Positions 31,939 through 41,445 of a stretch of DNA of 64,000 nt are shown here, piece after piece. The stretch spans positions 71,038-135,037 of the forward strand of contig CAVSBO010000013.1 of NCBI GenBank assembly GCA_963726195.1. The letters run 5' to 3'. A program made the translations under genes and the position numbers. Every line of letters begins with the position of its first letter. Within the stretch, counting starts at the first letter, position 1. The notes below the pieces were generated by a model. The model made no database searches and had not been told where the DNA came from. It saw nothing but the letters and a program-made list of their open reading frames with translations. Origin of the DNA: Candidatus Thorarchaeota archaeon. Lineage in GTDB: Archaea; Asgardarchaeota; Thorarchaeia; Thorarchaeales; Thorarchaeaceae.

Positions 31939-33328
31939 ATGAGCGATCCGGTAAGAGACGAAGGTAACTCAGACTTCTATGCAAGGCTGGGAGTCGAACC
32001 GATGGGCAAAGAAGGGCGCACTCATTTCAGCAACGAACTGACGCCGGACATTGCTGGAAAGGATGTCGTGCTAGTCGGATGGGTTCACATACTTCGCGAC
32101 AAAGGTAAGCTCAAGTTCCTCATCCTTAGAGATGAACATGGCACTGCTCAGGTTACAATATCGCAGGAGAAGGTTCCTGTAGATGTGTTTGCCCTTTCCG
32201 GACAGCTAAAACCTGAGTCAGTCATCGCTGTCAAGGGCAGAGTTGTGAAAGCTGGACAGGTCGATAGGGGAGTCGAAGTCGTACCGAGTGGAATACGTTT
32301 GATAAACACTGCAGAGCGGCTTCCTATAGACATTGTCGAGGGAAAGGTCGACATTGACCTGGAGACCCGTCTCAACAACCGCATTCTGGATTTACGAAAG
32401 CCAAGAGTGAGTGCCATTTTCCACGTGCAGCATTGTCTGGTGAAATCGGCTAGAGAGTATCTGCTCAAGAATGGATTCATCGAGATACATACCCCCAAGC
32501 TTGTGGCCGAGGCCACTGAAGGGGGTGCAAACCTCTTTGAAGTCAAGTACTTCGAGAAAAAGGCGTACCTCGCGCAAAGTCCCCAGTTCTACAAGCAGCT
32601 CATGCTTCTAGCAGGATTCGGAAGAGTCTATGAAGTCGGGCCTGTATTTCGGGCTGAAAAACACAACACACGTCGTCACGTCAACGAATACACGTCATTC
32701 GATTTCGAGATGTCTTGGATCAGCGGCGTTGAAGATGTCATGAAGATGGAAGAGAAAATGCTCGAGTACGCGATTAAGCAGACAGTAAAGGAAGCGTCTG
32801 CCGAACTCGAGTTGCTTGGTCTGAAGGTCCAAGTACCCAAGGTGCCATTCAAGAGAATCAAGCATGCTGAAGCGATTGATCTGGTGAACGAGACGGGCAA
32901 GCAGCTGATCTTACGAGGACGACCTTGACCCGGATTGTGAACGAATTCTGGGCGACATCTTTCCGGAGAAGTACGGCACGGACATGGTATTCATAACCCA
33001 TTACCCGCTATCGCTCAGGCCTGCCTATACAATGCCTAGTCTTACTGACGAGGGGAAGACAGAGAGCTTCGACCTTACCTACAAGGGCATGGAGATTACT
33101 ACAGGCGGCCAGCGCATACATCTGTACAATCTTCTGGTTGAACGATTCAAAGAGAAAGGCTTCGACCCGGAGCATTTTGCGTTTTACCTCGACCCGTTCA
33201 GGTATGGAGTTCCCCCGCATGGAGGACTGGGCCTCGGAGTAGAGCGGTTGACGATGCAAGTCCTCGGAATCGAAAATGTGAGGGAAGCCACTCTATTCCC
33301 AAGAGACCGTGACAGACTGACTCCTTAG
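31939..33328 (+). CDS. aspS: Aspartyl-tRNA synthetase, archaeal type (indel near 32908)
   Basis: OB fold GWVH..RD.G, TRLNNRILDLR, YLAQSPQFYKQ, FRAE, GGQR, PPHGG.GLGVERL, LFPRD. Confidence 0.95.
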
Positions 33329-33395: not shown

Positions 33396-34162
33396 ATGTC
33401 AATTCCAAAAAGGTGCCAAACAATGGACGAACCACTGCAATCCGAGCTCTTTGCATCAATCGCTACACTGGACCAGCTCAAGAAAATGTACGACATGGGT
33501 GTTATTGATATCAGATCGTACGAAAGGGAGTCCGAAGCATTGATTGCAGAGGTTCGGAACTGCATCGAACAGATGCGCCGGACCGGCCTCGACATAGGGA
33601 GTTTCGTCGGTCAGGCTCGGAGTATCAGAGTCTTTTCCTGATGCATCAAGCATGTTGGGTCTGCATGGGCGAGCCAATAAGCAACCAATCGGAGGGATGA
33701 CGGCCGATCAGTACTATGACTACATCGGGCTTGCTATCCTTGATGTGGCTACTGCAAACTCGTCGAAGGGTTTGATGGGACTTGCGGAACTCATTGTTGA
33801 GGTCGTTCGGTTGTTGCCGGAGCTGAAGTCTGTCAGCTACAATGACGTGATTGAAGCTGTAAACCGAGTGTTCTCAGCACGGATTGATACCCGGCATCCG
33901 AACGCTCAGGGGAGGAGTCAAGGTCGTTGAGCTACGACCATTGGAGCTCCGCCGTGACCAAGCGGACGTGATCAATGCTGCTGCAACCAAAGGCTACATC
34001 TCCGTGGAAGAGCTCATGATGCAGCTCAAATGGTCCGAAGACCACGCCCGTCAAGTGCTTTCCAGTTTGGTCGACGCTGGTATGGCAGTGGCAGACATAC
34101 GGTTCTCCACAGGCGGTCGTTATTACTTCCCGGGCCTAAGGCCAAGGGATAGTACCGTATAG
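33396..34162 (+). CDS. Vps28-like N-terminal hairpin fused to ESCRT-II Vps22/Vps36 (EAP30) winged helices (indels near 33612 and 33871)
   Basis: SELFASIATLDQLKKMY..GVID..SY...LI (Vps28-like); QYYDYIGLAILDV...GLMGLAEL...VSYNDV..AV...PLEL..DQ..V...KGYISVEEL...LKWS..A..L..L...GMAVAD...YYFPG (EAP30). Confidence 0.75.
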
Positions 34163-34210: not shown

Positions 34211-34924
34211 TCACACCGCTACCACTATCGCGCCTTTCTTGGAGTCCACCCACTTTGCCATTTTCCTGTCAACCATTATCTCCAAGATGCGATGCAAGTC
34301 TCTTTCGGGAAGCTTCGAAAAGTCTTGCGCAGTTTCCTGTACAATGATTGACTGCACGTCCAGACGTAGTTTGCCTGTTTGGATAGCCCAGGCACGTATC
34401 ATATCTGCCCATTCTTCAAGAGGTCGCCAGTACACCCGAAGCTGCCTTCTCTTTTCGTCCAACCACTCGCCAACATCATTCTCAACTAACCAGTCCCCTA
34501 TCAGCCTGAACGCTTCTACCTTTCCAAGTATGTCGCTGAACGGTCTTTCCTTGATGAAGGTCGATACTGACAGAACGTGAATACTCCCAGACTCAGTCCA
34601 TACAATCAGGAACTCGGCCCATTCTTTCTCCCACGATTCTTTGTCTTCTTCTCTGGGTGGGATGCTATACATCCATCCTGACTGTTTTGGGCCGCCCCAA
34701 GATGGCGTAACAAGAACGGTAGCTTGTACGGGTACCGACTCCGGCGCGGATTCAGTCAGAGTAGATTCGAGTCCTTGAGATAGTGAAGTTTCTTCAGCTC
34801 CGGCTTCTACGACATCAACGAGAGCGTTAGTCTTCGTTGTTTCGTCCTCAGCAGAAGCCTCAGTTGCTCGTTTGGGAGCTGCCTTCTGTCGTTCCTTCTC
34901 TTTCCGGCGTTCCTTGACTTCCAA
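34211..34924 (-). CDS. vps25: ESCRT-II Vps25 homologue with disordered N-terminal extension
   Basis: WMYSIPP, W..EW..FL, GEWLD......VYWRPLEEWADMI..W, F..L...L..IL; co-transcribed with vps4. Confidence 0.85.
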   Translation of the reverse strand: MEVKERRKEKERQKAAPKRATEASAEDETTKTNALVDVVEAGAEETSLSQGLESTLTESAPESVPVQATVLVTPSWGGPKQSGWMYSIPPREEDKESWEKEWAEFLIVWTESGSIHVLSVSTFIKERPFSDILGKVEAFRLIGDWLVENDVGEWLDEKRRQLRVYWRPLEEWADMIRAWAIQTGKLRLDVQSIIVQETAQDFSKLPERDLHRILEIMVDRKMAKWVDSKKGAIVVAV

Positions 34925-34927
34925 AAC

Positions 34928-36157
34928 CTAAGATGCCTCCCCCCATTCGATGTACTTCCTTACGTCTTCTGGTGGCGTGCCGGGTCCAATGCTCTCGATG
35001 GCCCGCAGAAAGTCCGCTCTGGAGACCGGGCGGAGTTCGGATACTGTGCCATCACGATCTGTTTCTTCTCCGCGCTGTAAATCCCTTATTGGCTCCATCG
35101 CAGCCTCTCGACATACCACAGTGATGTCCCGGCCACTGTAGCCCTCGGTCAGGTCAGCGAGCTCTTCGAAGTCGACCTCAGAAGACATGCTGACTCCCTC
35201 CATCTGGATTTCGAATATCCTTCTCCTTGAGGCTTTCCCTGGCAGCGGGATAAGGATCTTCTTCTCGAATCTCGACCTAAGAGCGAAATCCAGTTCCCAT
35301 GGAAGGTTCGTAGCGCCAATGACAGTTACCCTTTCGTCAGGTTGGCTTGTGAGTCCCTGTAGTTCTGTCAACAACTGAGTCTTGAGGCGTCTCTCGCCCC
35401 CGACGTCGTGGCCTGTCCTCGAAACGCCCACTGAATCAAGCTCATCCATGAAGATTATAGAAGGCTGATTCTTTCTCGCCATTTCGAATAGAGTCATGAC
35501 GAGCTTCTCAGACTCGCCCAGCCACTTGCTCACTATGTTTGCAGCGGAGACATTGAAGAACGTTGCATGCACTTCAGATGCCACAGCTCTTGCAATGAGG
35601 GTCTTGCCACATCCAGAGGGTCCATAGAACAGGATGCCCTTCCACGGTTGCCTTGATTTTCCTTTGAAGAGTTCAGGGTGCTTCATTGGTGTTATTATGG
35701 CTTCTTGGATTGCTTGCTTCGCGTCTTCCAGTCCCGCAACCTCAGACATTTTCGAGTCGGGCCGTTGGGCGATGATTGTGTCAGCGATAATTCCCTGAAG
35801 GTATCTCGCATCTTCATTATCATCATCTGTTTCCTGAAATCCTCGACTGGCTGAAGTCGGTTCGCGTCTCTCAACTGGACGTGTGGCAGGCTTGCTTGGA
35901 ACTGACGGTCGGTCTACCTGTCTCGTCTTGATGCCTGAGATGTATCTTACCCGATCCACGCACTCTTCGGCCCTGCTCAGGTAGTGTTTCTGCAATGACG
36001 GAAGGGATGAGGAATTGGAGAGCCTGATGAGTATCATGCTCACTTTGAGATAATAATGAGATGCCTCTTTCTGCAGTCCCTTCCTGTCGAGCTCTATGGC
36101 CTTTTCGAGTAGAGCCTTGACTCCGAGGTCAAGGCGGTCCGCGTCTGTTCCTGACAT
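34928..36157 (-). CDS. vps4: Vps4 AAA+ ATPase with N-terminal MIT domain
   Basis: MIT (KAIELD...A..YY...YLSRAE); VAGLEDAKQAIQEAII.P, PWKGILFYGPSGCGKT, SKWLGESEK, FMDELD, GATNLPWELD, EGYSG.DI. Confidence 0.93.
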   Translation of the reverse strand: MSGTDADRLDLGVKALLEKAIELDRKGLQKEASHYYLKVSMILIRLSNSSSLPSLQKHYLSRAEECVDRVRYISGIKTRQVDRPSVPSKPATRPVERREPTSASRGFQETDDDNEDARYLQGIIADTIIAQRPDSKMSEVAGLEDAKQAIQEAIITPMKHPELFKGKSRQPWKGILFYGPSGCGKTLIARAVASEVHATFFNVSAANIVSKWLGESEKLVMTLFEMARKNQPSIIFMDELDSVGVSRTGHDVGGERRLKTQLLTELQGLTSQPDERVTVIGATNLPWELDFALRSRFEKKILIPLPGKASRRRIFEIQMEGVSMSSEVDFEELADLTEGYSGRDITVVCREAAMEPIRDLQRGEETDRDGTVSELRPVSRADFLRAIESIGPGTPPEDVRKYIEWGEAS

Positions 36158-36305: not shown

Positions 36306-36938
36306 TTGGACATGGTGAGGTCGTTGGGTACGGCGAAGAAGGCTATGACTTGGGGCCGCAGAAAGCCAGACGTCGCAGAGGTGACCAGTCAGCTAAGAAT
36401 CTTGGGCAAGGAGCTCGAGCGAGAAAGAAACCGGCTCGAGAAGCAGGAAGTTGAAACCAAGACAAGGGCTGTGCGAGCCCGAAAGGATGGCCACATGGAT
36501 GGTTACAAGACTTACGCAACAGAGATGATACGCTTTAGGAAATCCGCCTTGTCTATTGACAAATCGCGGCTTCATCTTCTGAGGTTTCTTTCATCCATCA
36601 TTCACGCTCAGTCCGCTGCCAAGACAAACTTGGTTGTTGAAAAGGTCGCCAAGATTCTGGGGCTTTTTGTTGATGCCAGAGACTCTGCCAAGCTTGTTCG
36701 GAACCTCGACGAAATCACTCGACGGTTGGACGCGATCGAAATCGAGGGGTCCATATCGGACGAGACCTTCGACTCTATGAAAGACAGCAAGGTGACATCG
36801 GAGGAGCTAGCCGCAGCAATGCAGGAAATTGACGCGGCGGCTGGTGCTGAGGAAGCTGCTTCTCGGGCGGGCCCCGCTACCGAGGCTGAGAGACTCGAAG
36901 AGGAGATCAAGTCGCTAGAGAAGGAGCTGGGAGTTTAG
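36306..36938 (+). CDS. ESCRT-III subunit (Vps2/24/46, CHMP1-like class)
   Basis: Basic N-terminal helices (LERERNRLEKQE..K..A..A.KDG..D..K.YA.EMIR.RK), acidic C-half, MIM1-like ERLEEEIKSL tail; divergent from vps4. Confidence 0.85.
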   Translation: MDMVRSLGTAKKAMTWGRRKPDVAEVTSQLRILGKELERERNRLEKQEVETKTRAVRARKDGHMDGYKTYATEMIRFRKSALSIDKSRLHLLRFLSSIIHAQSAAKTNLVVEKVAKILGLFVDARDSAKLVRNLDEITRRLDAIEIEGSISDETFDSMKDSKVTSEELAAAMQEIDAAAGAEEAASRAGPATEAERLEEEIKSLEKELGV

Positions 36939-36939
36939 T

Positions 36940-38511
36940 CTAGCGCCCTAAGCCTTGACTTCTCCCAGAAGCCGTATCCAGTCGTTTTCTTGTCTCAAAT
37001 GAGTCTCGCATCAGCCCCTTGTATCGTCTAATGAAGTCCTCGGGGACCAACTGACCATTCCTCAACAGACGAACCGTTTCTTTTGCGGCATCGTCGATTG
37101 CCATAGCATCTCTTCTGAGTCCTATCATCTCGGAAGAGTCAGGGGCCTTCGAAGGTACTCCATCTGCACCGAACAAGCCACCCAAGTCTGGGCCAATCCT
37201 ATCACGGTATTGCATAGGCAACGTTCGTGCATCATTGCCTGCAATGCCTCCGAAGGGGTAGTAGGAAGATGATCTTTGGTCGAATGTTCTGTATGCTCCA
37301 GATGACATTGACCCAGCTTCTGGTTTTCCACCCGCATAGAGCAGGGAATAAGCAAGTTCCTCAACCTTTAGCCTAACGTCACTGATGTTCACATCGGTCT
37401 GTCCAAGTTTTCTTGTTCGCTGTAGGTCTGATTGCATGTACTTGTCGAAACTCTTGGCAATCTCCACGTAGTCTGGGAGAACACTCTCAGTTTGCTCACT
37501 ACATGATATCTTGATGTCCCCCTGTTTCATTCTGAGGACTACCCTTCTCCTCAGCCTGCCATCTTCCTCGATGCTCTTCATGTATGCTAGAGGAACATCA
37601 AACACGATGTCTGTCTTCTTACGCAATCTTCCGGTTTCAGCTATGAAGACGAATCTCTTGTTGGTAATGTATAGGGTTCCATTTGCCTTGTCATTCTTCA
37701 CGAAGTCGCTGCCTGCAATCCTTATGTCTGGAAGAGCACACACCGGCAACTCGTTGACAGATAGTTCGGCAGTCTCATAGAAACCCGAGAATTGCTTCCT
37801 GTAATAATCCAGTCCGTCCAGCTGTTGTTCGATGTCTACCAGACTCAGTCTCGACTCCTCGATTGCATCGTCGACGTTCTTCTTGTACTGGCCGACGAGT
37901 TGAGTGACTCGATTCGTGACGCCGCCCACGAAGGGGAATTGATCAGCTGACCAAGCGGCGGAATCAAGGAGTCCCTTTGTTTCGGCAACCATTTGCCTTG
38001 AGACTATCTCCGCCTGACTTGTGACTCTGTTCTTGATAGCTGGGAGTTCCATCTCAATGTTCTCAATCTTCTCCTCAAGCCAGCGATAGTGGAGAAAGTT
38101 TGCCATTCTCAGAGAAACCAGAAGTCTCTTGGCTGAGGTCAGTTGATTGGTGAAGTCCCGCAAGCGTGTGTATCCATAGTGGAGAGTCATTATTGCTCGG
38201 CGCAGGTCTTGAGCAAGTGCCTTCCTTTTCTCCTCGATAGGTGTCGTGCGTGTGGAGTGGCACCTAGGGCAGATTTCTTCTAGTCGCTTGCCAACACTGA
38301 GCTCGTGAGAGCCACATTCTGGGCATTTCTCAAACTTCTCGCCTGGCGCGGGCGTTCCAAGGCCGTGATGACAATTGCTGCAGACGTAGTGTTCGCTTGA
38401 CTTGGTCTTCAGGCAATCCAAGCACAGTACTTCTCCACAATCCTCACAGAGGTGCGTCGCTCTGTTCGCCTTGCAGACTTTGCATAGATGGGTAGACGGT
38501 TCGTTGCTCAA
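36940..38511 (-). CDS. Zn-finger + coiled-coil + PH/GRAM-like + Vps23 steadiness-box protein (ESCRT-I-like)
   Basis: Six CxxC pairs; GTLYITNKRFVF..VPL..MKSIE (PH/GRAM); C-terminal AIDDA.....LLRNGQL..EDFIRRYK.L.R..F (steadiness box); SD GGAGG before TTG at 38511. Confidence 0.7.
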   Translation of the reverse strand: MSNEPSTHLCKVCKANRATHLCEDCGEVLCLDCLKTKSSEHYVCSNCHHGLGTPAPGEKFEKCPECGSHELSVGKRLEEICPRCHSTRTTPIEEKRKALAQDLRRAIMTLHYGYTRLRDFTNQLTSAKRLLVSLRMANFLHYRWLEEKIENIEMELPAIKNRVTSQAEIVSRQMVAETKGLLDSAAWSADQFPFVGGVTNRVTQLVGQYKKNVDDAIEESRLSLVDIEQQLDGLDYYRKQFSGFYETAELSVNELPVCALPDIRIAGSDFVKNDKANGTLYITNKRFVFIAETGRLRKKTDIVFDVPLAYMKSIEEDGRLRRRVVLRMKQGDIKISCSEQTESVLPDYVEIAKSFDKYMQSDLQRTRKLGQTDVNISDVRLKVEELAYSLLYAGGKPEAGSMSSGAYRTFDQRSSSYYPFGGIAGNDARTLPMQYRDRIGPDLGGLFGADGVPSKAPDSSEMIGLRRDAMAIDDAAKETVRLLRNGQLVPEDFIRRYKGLMRDSFETRKRLDTASGRSQGLGR

Positions 38512-38708
38512 CGGGATGCCTCCGAACATCTGGGTTCGAGTTATGCAATAGAGCGTCCTGAATAATTGGCTATGTATCACACAAGTATTAGTCAATCCAA
38601 GTCGCTTTGAGGCAGGTTGGTACAACTGTCTGGCCACTTGCAGCAGCTTGTTTTGTCCGGATTGGTTATATCACGTAAAGCGCGCTCGAATCACGGGAAG
38701 AACCGGAC

Positions 38709-40094
38709 ATGGAGAACCTTGCGCAGGCTGCAATTGAGGCTGCTCTGAAGGCCGGAGCCGCTTTTGCAGACATCAGGATAGAAAACACAGTTACTACGAT
38801 TATTGAGCTTGACGACGGAGTCACGAAGCGCTCGATGGCTTCTCAATTGAAGGGGGCAGGGATTAGAGCGTTCTTCGACGGGGCATGGGCGTTCGGTCAG
38901 ACCACGGACCTCACCCCTGCTGGCATGCGAAGCACGGCAGTCTCTGTCGCTAAGATGGCTATCGCCACACATGGCAGAGTTGCGGAGAAGTTCAGTATTG
39001 ATGGACCTGCTTTCAAAGACAGTATGCCTCTCAAGGTGAAGCGCCCGTTCCAGGATGTGCCAGTCGAAGAAAAGGTTGCATTCGTTAAGACGATAGATGA
39101 ACAGGCTCGAGGCTATGACAAGAGGATAGTGAATGTTCGGACATCGTATGGCGACCTGTGGACGGAGCTTTACGTAGTCAATTCTCTGGGCACGAGTGTC
39201 TACATCGAGAACTCATTGCCGCGCCTTTCCTGTGCAGTCACGGCCAAGGACGGATCCAACAGACAGCGAGCATTCAAGTCAGTGGGGGCAAAGGGCGGCT
39301 TTGAAGAGATGGAAACCGAGCGTGCTCAAGCGGTTGGTGAAGAGTCTTCCAAGCTGGCGGTTGAACTGCTGTCTTCTGTTGCTGCAAGGGGCGGAGTGCA
39401 TGACGTCATCATGGATCCGGTTTTCAATGGAGTGATGGTGCATGAAGCGTTTGGTCATGCATGTGAGGCAGACAATTGGCCAGCTCACACGACGGTGCTA
39501 GAGGACAAGATGGGAAAGGTCGTGGGACCTGAGCACCTCAACCTGACTGATGATCCGACGCTTGAGGGCATGCGTGGTTCGTTCCCGTATGATTGGGAAG
39601 GAACCAAGACCAGAAAGAGGCATCTTGTCAAGCGTGGCGTTCTTTCAGAGCTACTGCATAGCATTGAGTCTTCTAGCAGGCTCAGCATGGAACCAAACGG
39701 TGCAGCAAGAGCCCAATCTTTCACGAGTGAACCGATTCCTCGGATGAGCAATACATTCATGGAGCCTGGTGATTGGGGAGTTGACGAGCTAGTCTCAGAC
39801 ACACGTCAAGGAATCTTGCTCTGCGACTTCAACTACGGTTACACAGAACCATCAAAGGGGCAGTTCATGTTTCAGGCGAGCTATGGTTACCTCATAGAAG
39901 GTGGAGAGGCCGGACAGATGGTTCGTGATGTATCGATTGCAGGGCAGATTCTTGAGGTGCTTCCGAAGATAGACGCCGTAGCGAATGATTTCAAGTTGGA
40001 AGCAGGCAGTTGCGGCAAGGGCGGTCAGTGGGTTCCGGATATGAGTGGCGGGCCGCATGCCCGCATACGTGCGGTCCCCGTAGGAGGCATGTAG
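38709..40094 (+). CDS. tldD: TldD metalloprotease
   Basis: FADIRIE, HEAFGHACEAD, DDPT, DWEG, PRMSNT, CGKGGQ..P. Confidence 0.92.
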   Translation: MENLAQAAIEAALKAGAAFADIRIENTVTTIIELDDGVTKRSMASQLKGAGIRAFFDGAWAFGQTTDLTPAGMRSTAVSVAKMAIATHGRVAEKFSIDGPAFKDSMPLKVKRPFQDVPVEEKVAFVKTIDEQARGYDKRIVNVRTSYGDLWTELYVVNSLGTSVYIENSLPRLSCAVTAKDGSNRQRAFKSVGAKGGFEEMETERAQAVGEESSKLAVELLSSVAARGGVHDVIMDPVFNGVMVHEAFGHACEADNWPAHTTVLEDKMGKVVGPEHLNLTDDPTLEGMRGSFPYDWEGTKTRKRHLVKRGVLSELLHSIESSSRLSMEPNGAARAQSFTSEPIPRMSNTFMEPGDWGVDELVSDTRQGILLCDFNYGYTEPSKGQFMFQASYGYLIEGGEAGQMVRDVSIAGQILEVLPKIDAVANDFKLEAGSCGKGGQWVPDMSGGPHARIRAVPVGGM

Positions 40095-40095
40095 T

Positions 40096-41445
40096 ATGAC
40101 ACAGCAACTCACAGAGCTAGCGGAAAGAACAGTCAAAGCCGCAGAACGGCTTGGTGCTGAACAGGCTGAGGTGTATGTTGGCTCGGCGCGGTCTTTCTCG
40201 ATTTACGTTGAGAACAATGCAATCAAGAGTGCAGCCGAAAGAAGAGACGCTGGATGCGGCATACGATGCGTGTTTGGAAAGAAGATAGGCTTCGCTTACG
40301 TGACCACGCTCGACGTTCACGACATCGAGAATGCTGTACGCAGGTCCGTTGCTTTGGCAAAGGCATCGGTCGCTGACCCCGACTTCGTGAGTCTGCCTAC
40401 TCCTGAGTCACATTACCCGGTTGTCAAGGGTTTGTTTGACAAGGCCATTGAAGGTTTGGATGCTGAAGAAGCTGCTGACCTAATTGCAAGATGCGTGGAT
40501 GCTGCGAAAGAGCCCGTGCAGAAAAGGCAGTACGCGATTCAGGCTGATCTGAGTGCTTCTTCGGGAAGCAGGGCAATCGCCAATTCTCTCGGAATATCAC
40601 TGTCAGGCAAATCGACTTCTGCGATAATAGATAGCGACGTGACAATCAAAGAGGAGGGAGACCAGACATCAAGCGCTGAGTACCAGGTCTCACGTGCGCT
40701 GAACGGGATAGACCCCGAATGGGTAGGCAGGACTTCCTCAGAGAACGCATTGCAGAACCTCGGAGCCAAGACAATCGAAGGAGGCGAGATGTCGGTGATT
40801 CTGACCCCTCTTGCAGCAAGTGTGGTCATCGGATCGGGTTTTGCAGGCGCCATCAATGCGGAGGAAGTCCAACAGGGGCGCTCCTACATTTCAGATGCAA
40901 TTGGTTCAGAGATTGCTTCGGACAAACTTCGCATTTTGGATGATGGTTTGCTCATGGGTGGACTAGGATCACGAGCATTCGACGCAGAAGGCGCTCTCTC
41001 TCAACGGACCGAGGTGTTGAAGGGTGGCGTGCTGAAGAGTTTACTTCATAGTTCCTATACTGCCAACAAGGATCGAGTTCCCAACACGGGCAATGCCTCT
41101 CGACCCTCGTATGCTGGCATACCGATGATTGCAACTACCAACTTCGTGGTTGAGCCAGATCGCGGCACGCTCGAGGACCTAGTTTCGGAAGTGAAGAAGG
41201 GTGTTCTTTGCAGGAGCACGGATGACCGGCCAAATATGACCACAGGCGATCTGAGCGCTATGGTGATGGAGGGTTTCTACATTGAGGACGGTGAGATTCG
41301 AAAAGGAGTCAAGAGCACGCTCATAGGTATCAACATGCGCGACCTGCTCAAGAGGGTTAGCCGTGTCGGTGCTGATACAAGAGCCACCATGTCCATGGTT
41401 ACACCCTCCATAGTCATTGACTCCGCCAGAATAACCTCCGGGTAA
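40096..41445 (+). CDS. tldE: TldE/PmbA partner subunit
   Basis: GAEQAEVY, FDAEG, TGNA.R, TGDLS, no HExxxH; follows tldD. Confidence 0.9.
   Translation: MTQQLTELAERTVKAAERLGAEQAEVYVGSARSFSIYVENNAIKSAAERRDAGCGIRCVFGKKIGFAYVTTLDVHDIENAVRRSVALAKASVADPDFVSLPTPESHYPVVKGLFDKAIEGLDAEEAADLIARCVDAAKEPVQKRQYAIQADLSASSGSRAIANSLGISLSGKSTSAIIDSDVTIKEEGDQTSSAEYQVSRALNGIDPEWVGRTSSENALQNLGAKTIEGGEMSVILTPLAASVVIGSGFAGAINAEEVQQGRSYISDAIGSEIASDKLRILDDGLLMGGLGSRAFDAEGALSQRTEVLKGGVLKSLLHSSYTANKDRVPNTGNASRPSYAGIPMIATTNFVVEPDRGTLEDLVSEVKKGVLCRSTDDRPNMTTGDLSAMVMEGFYIEDGEIRKGVKSTLIGINMRDLLKRVSRVGADTRATMSMVTPSIVIDSARITSG

Follow-up and report, generated by a model that had tools for sequence, protein, structure and literature searches.

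A thorarchaeial orthologue of Znr_CC_PH_SB, a probable ESCRT-I-like adaptor, encoded in an ESCRT gene cluster

The window studied here is a 64,000-nucleotide stretch of contig CAVSBO010000013.1 (positions 71,038 to 135,037 of the forward strand; GenBank assembly GCA_963726195.1) from a Candidatus Thorarchaeota archaeon. [quoted passage not shown] An initial annotation made from the sequence alone had drawn attention to this gene, and that observation is confirmed: it encodes a real, conserved ESCRT-system protein of Thorarchaeota. Judging from profile matches, gene order and C-terminal identity, it is the thorarchaeial orthologue of Znr_CC_PH_SB (cog.011556) and the same protein as the 'SB' of Hatano et al. 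We consider it probable (about 0.75) that this protein acts as an ESCRT-I-like adaptor in an ESCRT pathway devoid of ubiquitin. The protein, its architecture and the adaptor hypothesis have already been published (2022-2024), and the window adds one more orthologue.

C-terminal hairpin

The motif AIDDA...LLRNGQL..EDFIRRYK, which had been read as the mark of a steadiness-box-like hairpin, is found at the C-terminus of the protein. Profile A2, built from the C-terminal 80 residues of 21 members that span many Asgard families, was searched against all PDB sequences. Its top four matches were Vps23 (2f66_A, E = 2e-8; 2p22_A, 2.8e-8; 2caz_A, 9.4e-8) and TSG101 (6vme_B, 6e-8). The fifth match was an unrelated protein, five orders of magnitude weaker (3.7e-3), and Vps37B was reached at 0.27. 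Since the four best PDB matches are all Vps23 or TSG101, the hairpin is, at the level of the family profile, a Vps23-type steadiness box and not a generic SHOCT hairpin. The likeness seen initially is thus specific to Vps23/TSG101, the profile matching the homologous hairpins of the yeast and human proteins with E-values from 2e-8 to 9e-8.

When the 21 C-termini were searched individually against Pfam, Vps23_core was matched by 16 of them (best E = 3.2e-7), CdvA by three and SHOCT (PF09851) by one (E = 0.007). The best Vps23_core match anywhere in this genome (88.9% complete) is the hairpin described here, and no other Vps23_core protein was found in it. The initial annotation had raised the alternative of a generic SHOCT-like hairpin. 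Such a hairpin, or a generic coiled coil, in a protein unrelated to ESCRT would be in keeping with the single SHOCT match and with the window sequence, which taken alone lies below the Vps23_core cut-off. However, this alternative is effectively refuted by the PDB matches of the profile, by the Pfam counts and by the conserved linkage to ESCRT genes described below, and we regard it as almost certainly wrong.

Elsewhere in the genome, the steadiness-box profile gave two weak matches. One, at G000:C5:77664-77876 (L051, E = 6.5e-6), lies in a UPF0182-family membrane protein and the other, at G000:C15:74311-74475 (L052, E = 1.9e-5), in a 107-residue GvpG-like open reading frame (ORF) located between a Mem_trans transporter and a ZnuA-like gene. 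Both lack an ESCRT context; they were rejected as further steadiness-box proteins and are probably coiled-coil noise.

Conserved linkage to ESCRT genes

In the window, the gene is accompanied by genes encoding Snf7 (ESCRT-III), the Vps4 ATPase, a Vps25-like ESCRT-II subunit and Vps22, the latter fused to a Vps28-type N-terminal hairpin. The neighbourhoods of relatives were read from genome loci by tblastn and Pfam searches. A Snf7 gene lies tail-to-tail within 8-191 bp of the 3' end of the gene in all 24 further loci of the Thor family, which come from related genomes and are not independent. Furthermore, the Vps22-Vps25-Vps4-Snf7-target cluster is complete in three more genera of Thor, as well as in four loci that belong to other Asgard families. 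Hence, the linkage to ESCRT genes, which for vps4 the initial annotation had put forward as a check, extends to Snf7 in every further Thor locus and to the full cluster, Vps4 included, in several lineages. In loci L025-L027 and L032, and in L037, which is of the Loki type, Snf7 is the only ESCRT neighbour found. No ESCRT neighbour was detected by tblastn in Loki-type loci; in L037, Pfam identified a Snf7 gene about 1.7 kb from the homologue.

The Vps28-Vps22 fusion gene is split in this assembly. Its first ORF matches positions 2-59 of the VPS28 profile (E = 5e-4) and the next two match EAP30/Vps22, and the fusion gene is intact in relatives (L042-L044). In the whole genome, 88.9% complete, no UEV match was found at E <= 1, and neither ubiquitin nor a ubiquitin-conjugating enzyme (E2) was found.

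Outside the ESCRT cluster, a 423-residue frame at G000:C3:846122-846682 (minus strand, L047) shows a weak match to almost the entire VPS28 profile (positions 10-185, E = 0.0064, below cut-off). From this similarity, it may be a divergent Vps28-like protein or a multidomain protein with a Vps28-C domain.

Identity with a published family and distribution

Makarova et al. (2024, mBio, PMC10936438) described Znr_CC_PH_SB (also written Znr_PH_CC_SB; asCOG cog.011556) as a protein that combines three zinc ribbons and a coiled coil with a PH domain and a steadiness box. According to these authors, it is missing from eukaryotes, is likely to be ancestral in Asgard archaea and is a 'likely ESCRT-I component'. 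All these features are found here, namely three Zn modules formed by six CxxC pairs, a helical region, a PH domain and a steadiness box, and, as in the published family, the protein is restricted to Asgard archaea and encoded near ESCRT genes. A full-length AlphaFold2 model, computed with an alignment of 29 family sequences (A1), reached a mean predicted local distance difference test score (pLDDT) of 77.9. It places in order the zinc module (residues 13-97), three helices, the PH sandwich, short helices, a disordered linker and the hairpin (466-490 and 496-520). The succession of zinc fingers, helices, PH domain, linker and steadiness box claimed initially is borne out by the regions of this model and by the family profiles. 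The motifs invoked for it (CxxC pairs, PH pattern, Gly/Pro/Ser stretch and C-terminal hairpin motif) are all present in the translated ORF. Moreover, Pfam gave no UEV match in the protein, in agreement with the claim that a PH domain stands in place of the UEV domain.

The link to the published members was made through the family profile, the gene order of one Loki-type locus (L037) and the C-terminal identity of one homologue (L017). Profile A1 matches Loki-type proteins of 660-740 residues at about 1e-22. The gene order of L037 (peptidase C69 - L35Ae - homologue - MetE - GNAT - Snf7) is, the GNAT gene excepted, that found around the published cog.011556 member of Lokiarchaeum GC14_75, which the supplementary table of Makarova et al. 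(PMC10936438) places between L35Ae and MetE, near Vps20. In addition, homologue L017 and 'ThorAB25_08990|SB', listed in the Supplementary Data of Hatano et al. (2022, Nat Commun, PMC9192718), end in the same 80 residues. These authors described the latter as a 'freestanding steadiness box protein', cloned it and used it in yeast two-hybrid assays. The numbering of the AB_25 genes (08990 SB, 09000 ESCRT3A, 09020 Vps25, 09030 Vps22) mirrors the cluster of the window.

ThorAB25_08990 is an orthologue from a different genus, with the same five-gene order and about 55% identity (as judged from homologues of the AB_25 clade); it was cloned for yeast two-hybrid, whereas the copy in the window is known from its sequence alone. 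Compared with the Loki-type proteins (about 650-740 residues), those of Thorarchaeota are shorter (about 500-570 residues) because their linker is shorter.

A word-indexed search returned 165 homologues. Among the 120 listed, which are 49-99% identical, none carries a functional annotation (they are hypothetical where annotated), and nearly all the named ones belong to 'Candidatus Thorarchaeota archaeon'. Searching 1.84 billion proteins using HMMER with profile A1 yielded only 123 clusters at 50% identity. In whole genomes, the same profile found full-length proteins, with E-values as low as 1e-269, in 73 of the 76 genomes belonging to the same family and was matched in 208 of the 301 genomes of the phylum, some families having few matches or none (0/21, 1/28, 0/4). 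As seen in these searches, the family is conserved but patchy, and specific to Asgard archaea.

Predicted role in an ubiquitin-independent ESCRT pathway

As an ESCRT-I-like adaptor, the protein would act through its two ends. Its steadiness-box hairpin would pack against the N-terminal hairpin, of the Vps28 type, that the neighbouring Vps22 carries as a fusion, and the two would make up a small headpiece resembling ESCRT-I and coupled directly to ESCRT-II (Vps22/Vps25). ESCRT-II would then nucleate Snf7 polymers, which Vps4 would recycle. In the Thor alignment, R303, R325 and R327 of the PH domain are invariant and K328 and R329 nearly so; the basic surface that they would form probably holds the complex on an acidic membrane surface. 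At the other end, the zinc module and the helical bundle may recognise cargo or a partner, or self-associate, and so replace the ubiquitin-binding UEV domain.

The initial annotation had also proposed that the protein is the adaptor of this ESCRT system, and our comparisons tend to support this role, which is the published inference as well (PMC10936438). Drawing an analogy with Vps36, Makarova et al. write that the PH domain is 'expected to be membrane associated'. Furthermore, Hatano et al. (PMC9192718) obtained yeast two-hybrid hints of an interaction with Vps28 for both the Loki and the Thor steadiness-box proteins, and an interaction of the Loki protein with Vps22. Since Thorarchaeota were reported to be devoid of UEV and seemingly of ubiquitin (PMC9192718), and since neither was found in this genome, the protein is the best candidate for the selector of membranes or cargo in an ancestral, ubiquitin-independent ESCRT pathway. 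It is also a candidate link between ESCRT-I-like and ESCRT-II modules, through the pairing of its hairpin with the Vps28N-Vps22 fusion. Both points are of genuine interest for understanding how the eukaryotic ESCRT arose.

Several observations weigh against the adaptor role. In Loki-type genomes, the gene lies near a single Snf7 gene and not in a full cluster. The C-terminus of the window protein matches Vps23_core only at E = 0.015-0.023 (15.7 bits for a cut-off of 26.8), so its assignment to the Vps23 type is drawn from the family profile. The PH domain and a disordered linker of 60 residues separate the helices from the hairpin, and an ESCRT-I-like stalk is not established. Lastly, the experimental support for the Thor protein is the yeast two-hybrid of an orthologue.

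A canonical Vps23 orthologue was considered and ruled out, as the protein has neither UEV domain nor contiguous stalk. Unlike Vps23/TSG101, it also lacks a Pro-rich region ahead of a stalk, and its zinc fingers and PH domain stand where the ubiquitin reader would be. In TSG101, the Pro-rich linker comes before the stalk, and the stalk continues without a break into the steadiness box (established; summarised in PMC10936438), whereas here the linker parts the PH domain from the steadiness box. The idea that the order of linker and steadiness box mirrors TSG101 therefore holds loosely, for the succession of the two elements and not for the position of the linker. By homology, the steadiness box probably docks a Vps28-type hairpin.

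The main rival to an ESCRT-I-like adaptor is a recruiter resembling CdvA: the PH domain would bind the membrane and the protein would recruit the adjacent Snf7 directly, with no part for ESCRT-II, much as CdvB is recruited by CdvA in Crenarchaeota. Both would be membrane-associated recruiters bearing a helical hairpin, and the CdvA hairpin has been related to the steadiness box in the literature (Makarova et al. 2024, PMC10936438; Lu 2023), in keeping with the Pfam CdvA matches in three of the 21 C-termini. In addition, the tightest and most widespread linkage of the gene is with Snf7 (24/24 Thor loci), the sole ESCRT neighbour found in L025-L027, L032 and L037, and Hatano et al. (PMC9192718) remark on bypass interactions. 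However, nothing else comes near the match of the hairpin profile to Vps23/TSG101 (E = 2e-8), Vps22, three genes away, carries a Vps28-type hairpin as a candidate partner, and the gene and Snf7 are convergent and hence not co-transcribed. Moreover, unlike crenarchaeal CdvA, the window protein shows no evident PRC barrel or E3B peptide. We consider direct recruitment of Snf7 unlikely and retain the ESCRT-I-like adaptor as the preferred role.

PH domain and its relation to GLUE

In the AlphaFold2 model, residues 262-359 form a seven-stranded sandwich with a capping helix, and the pattern GTLYITNKRFVF, which the initial annotation had compared with that of the Vps36 GLUE domain, is located at residues 284-295. 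Structural comparison with VIA-align gave the highest score for the PH-GRAM domain of MTMR2 (Z = 12.9, root-mean-square deviation (rmsd) of 2.8 over 107 residues), followed by Lam6 (Z = 12.1), BBS5 (11.7), the GLUE domain of EAP45 (Z = 11.6, rmsd of 3.6 over 107 residues, 19% identity) and ordinary PH domains (about 11). The difference between GLUE (11.6) and GRAM (12.9) is within noise. The best compact matches in Foldseek were EAP45 GLUE (2hth_B, E = 2.4e-4; 2dx5_A), MTMR2 PH-GRAM, Lam6 and the PH domain of yeast Vps36. DH-PH proteins, which also appeared in both Foldseek and VIA-align, were set aside, as their long alignments (rmsd of 5-19 A) match only helices lying beside a PH domain.

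At the sequence level, Pfam searches with 21 PH segments (A3) matched bPH_3 in 17 of them (best E = 2.4e-7), GRAM in 14 (2.2e-5) and Vps36_ESCRT-II in nine (1.4e-5). The window's own PH domain reached Vps36 GLUE (PF11605) at E = 0.019-0.032, below the cut-off. The PH profile gave just seven weak matches among PDB sequences (E = 0.016-1.0): the bacterial PH proteins 3dcx and 3hsa, BBS5 twice, Vps36 of yeast and of mouse, and MTMR6. Vps36 was reached only at E = 0.19-1.0. As modelled, the domain belongs to the GRAM/GLUE/bacterial-PH subgroup. The label 'GLUE/GRAM-like' is therefore accurate, on the strength of MTMR2, EAP45 GLUE and the Pfam GRAM matches; a GLUE-specific PH domain is not upheld, since GRAM and bacterial PH domains match as well or better.

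The resemblance to Vps36 goes further in one lineage. In the record JBHLPL010000001.1 ('Promethearchaeota archaeon isolate H2M.186'), the gene at L035:9401-11206 (plus strand) encodes a 601-residue protein (P0147, G053:C138) that joins the Znr-CC-PH module to winged helices of the EAP30/Vps22 type and lacks the steadiness box. It matches EAP30 (1.8e-11) and Vps36_ESCRT-II (1.8e-4) in Pfam and has a Vps36-like domain plan. Its neighbours encode a stand-alone Vps22, a canonical VPS28, Snf7 and a longin-Arf GTPase. This fusion is limited to one of the 123 representative clusters, with two close relatives (P0243 and P0244), and no further EAP30 fusion was found in ten full-length family representatives devoid of a detectable steadiness box. 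For the winged helices of the fusion, Vps22/Snf8 is the closer match (about 1e-6, against 5e-4 for Vps36), and the stand-alone Vps22 encoded in the same genome shares 37% identity with them. Because it occurs in a single lineage, has Vps22-like helices and shares 37% identity with its own Vps22, the fusion is probably an independent, recent and lineage-specific Vps22 paralogue and gives no evidence of ancestry. It nonetheless offers useful 'Rosetta stone' support for the suggestion that the Znr-CC-PH module works with ESCRT-II.

These data bear on the proposal that the family is a possible source of the GLUE domain, or, in its strong form, that its PH domain is the ancestor of the GLUE domain of eukaryotic Vps36. 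EAP45 GLUE ranks with the best compact structural matches and has the highest sequence identity, Vps36_ESCRT-II is found in nine of the 21 PH segments, the fusion shares the domain plan of Vps36, and Hatano et al. (2022, PMC9192718) found no full-length homologue of Vps36 among Asgard archaea. Furthermore, the window protein and Vps36/EAP45 share a GRAM-like PH fold in an ESCRT protein that also bears zinc fingers. However, GRAM (MTMR2, Lam6) and bPH_3 match at least equally well, and the PH profile finds Vps36 only among its weak matches. The zinc fingers of the window protein lie at the N-terminus instead of interrupting the PH domain as they do in Vps36 GLUE, and the protein carries no EAP30 winged helices and ends in a steadiness box. 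With a PH domain equally near to GRAM and bacterial PH domains, and with a sole PH-EAP30 fusion that appears to be a lineage-specific Vps22 paralogue, the proposal is not sustained, and we judge direct ancestry of GLUE quite improbable.

A broader scenario would make Znr-CC-PH the archaeal functional forerunner of the head of ESCRT-II (Vps36 GLUE and zinc fingers). This head would be delivered to Vps22 non-covalently, by hairpin pairing, in most Asgard archaea and covalently in at least one lineage, with GLUE descending from an Asgard PH domain. We regard this scenario as speculative and rather improbable.

Zinc module

The N-terminal module contains the CxxC pairs C16/19, C28/31, C36/39, C50/53, C69/72 and C87/90, and all 12 cysteines are invariant across 22 aligned sequences from many Asgard families. 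In the full-length model, residues 13-97 form a module rich in beta-hairpins. The description of these fingers as 'B-box-like' finds support at the sequence level, and in homologues only. Among homologues, zf-B_box is matched by 17 of 29 sequences (best E = 7.9e-6), and the N-terminal family profile finds the B-box of TRIM2 (4.7e-5), the RING of RNF4 (5e-8) and also TRIM21. The window protein itself has no zf-B_box match in Pfam at E <= 0.1 and matches zf-FPG_IleRS at residues 66-90 (E = 1e-4). At the level of the fold, the search favours zinc ribbons, the name that Makarova et al. (PMC10936438) give to these N-terminal domains. With a separate AlphaFold2 model of residues 1-100 (pLDDT 81.4), in which no zinc is placed, Foldseek found nothing below E = 1e-3; the best partial matches, not significant, were MCM-type zinc ribbons (E = 0.025).

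The RING and B-box matches could suggest a TRIM-like B-box/coiled-coil scaffold or a RING-type E3 ligase that modifies ESCRT cargo, all the more as the zinc module is succeeded by long helices, an arrangement shared with TRIM proteins, and as the legend of the ESCRT-I schematics of Hatano et al. (PMC9192718) includes RING, along with CC, PH and 23-SB, as a domain symbol. However, profiles rich in cysteine inflate similarity, and the RING domains align to the model of the zinc module only at an rmsd of about 14 A. The reported absence of ubiquitin from Thorarchaeota (PMC9192718) and the failure to find ubiquitin, E2 or UEV in this genome also argue against a ligase, as does the missing B-box match in the window protein. 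A TRIM-like scaffold or E3 ligase is thus very improbable.

Gene start, helices and linker

The initial annotation placed the upper end of the gene at 38511, which is a TTG codon and an alternative start. The same frame has an ATG 18 nt upstream, at 38529. Since the residues encoded between the two codons (GG.QL[ST]E) are kept in several homologues, the ATG is the likelier start, giving a protein of 529 residues.

The three-helix region that follows the zinc module is the most conserved stretch of the Thor alignment. The linker varies in length and sequence among homologues (alignment columns 440-545) and contains one short semi-conserved helix (residues 447-453) in the AlphaFold2 model.

At residues about 444-454 of the linker (window about 37168-37200, minus strand), Thor orthologues keep the motif [FY][RK][DE]xLE....R (alignment columns about 497-512). 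From this conservation, it could be a candidate short linear docking motif.

Table 1. Position of the gene, of the predicted regions of its product and of the neighbouring ESCRT genes in the window.
Feature	Position in the window	Strand	Basis and details
Whole gene, Znr_CC_PH_SB ('SB')	36940..38529	-	529 aa; stop codon 36940-36942, likelier start ATG 38529
Zn-binding module, residues 13-97	38239..38493	-	Six CxxC pairs, three predicted Zn sites
Three long helices ('coiled-coil' region), residues 98-142, 149-184 and 195-247	37789..38238	-	AlphaFold2, pLDDT about 85-95
PH domain, predicted GRAM/GLUE/bacterial-PH type, residues about 248-365	37435..37788	-	VIA-align, Foldseek, Pfam
Short helices after the PH domain, residues about 361-401	37327..37434	-	AlphaFold2
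Disordered Gly/Pro/Ser-rich linker, residues about 401-462	37144..37326	-	AlphaFold2 pLDDT below 50
Predicted Vps23-type steadiness box, hairpin 466-490 and 496-520	36964..37143	-	Profile against PDB sequences; confident in AlphaFold2
Snf7 (ESCRT-III)	36306..36938	+	Pfam Snf7, E = 3e-7; convergent, ends 2 bp from the stop codon of the gene
Vps4 AAA ATPase	34928..36157	-	Pfam
Vps25-like ESCRT-II subunit	34211..34924	-	Pfam ESCRT-II, E = 6e-12
Vps28(N-hairpin)-Vps22 fusion gene, broken in the assembly into three ORFs that overlap or adjoin one another	33396..34162	+	VPS28 and EAP30 matches

Other genes of the window

Upstream of the gene and divergent from it, a tandem pair of TldD/PmbA metallopeptidase genes is located at 38709-41445 (plus strand). 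This pair is ordinary, and tblastn in relatives shows no link between it and ESCRT genes. On the other side of the cluster, a gene for a class II tRNA synthetase of the Asp/Asn/Lys type (31939-33328, plus strand) is split into ORFs of 329 and 114 residues, which cover positions 2-169 and 193-307 of Pfam tRNA-synt_2. This split could result from a frameshift, an assembly error or a small insertion.

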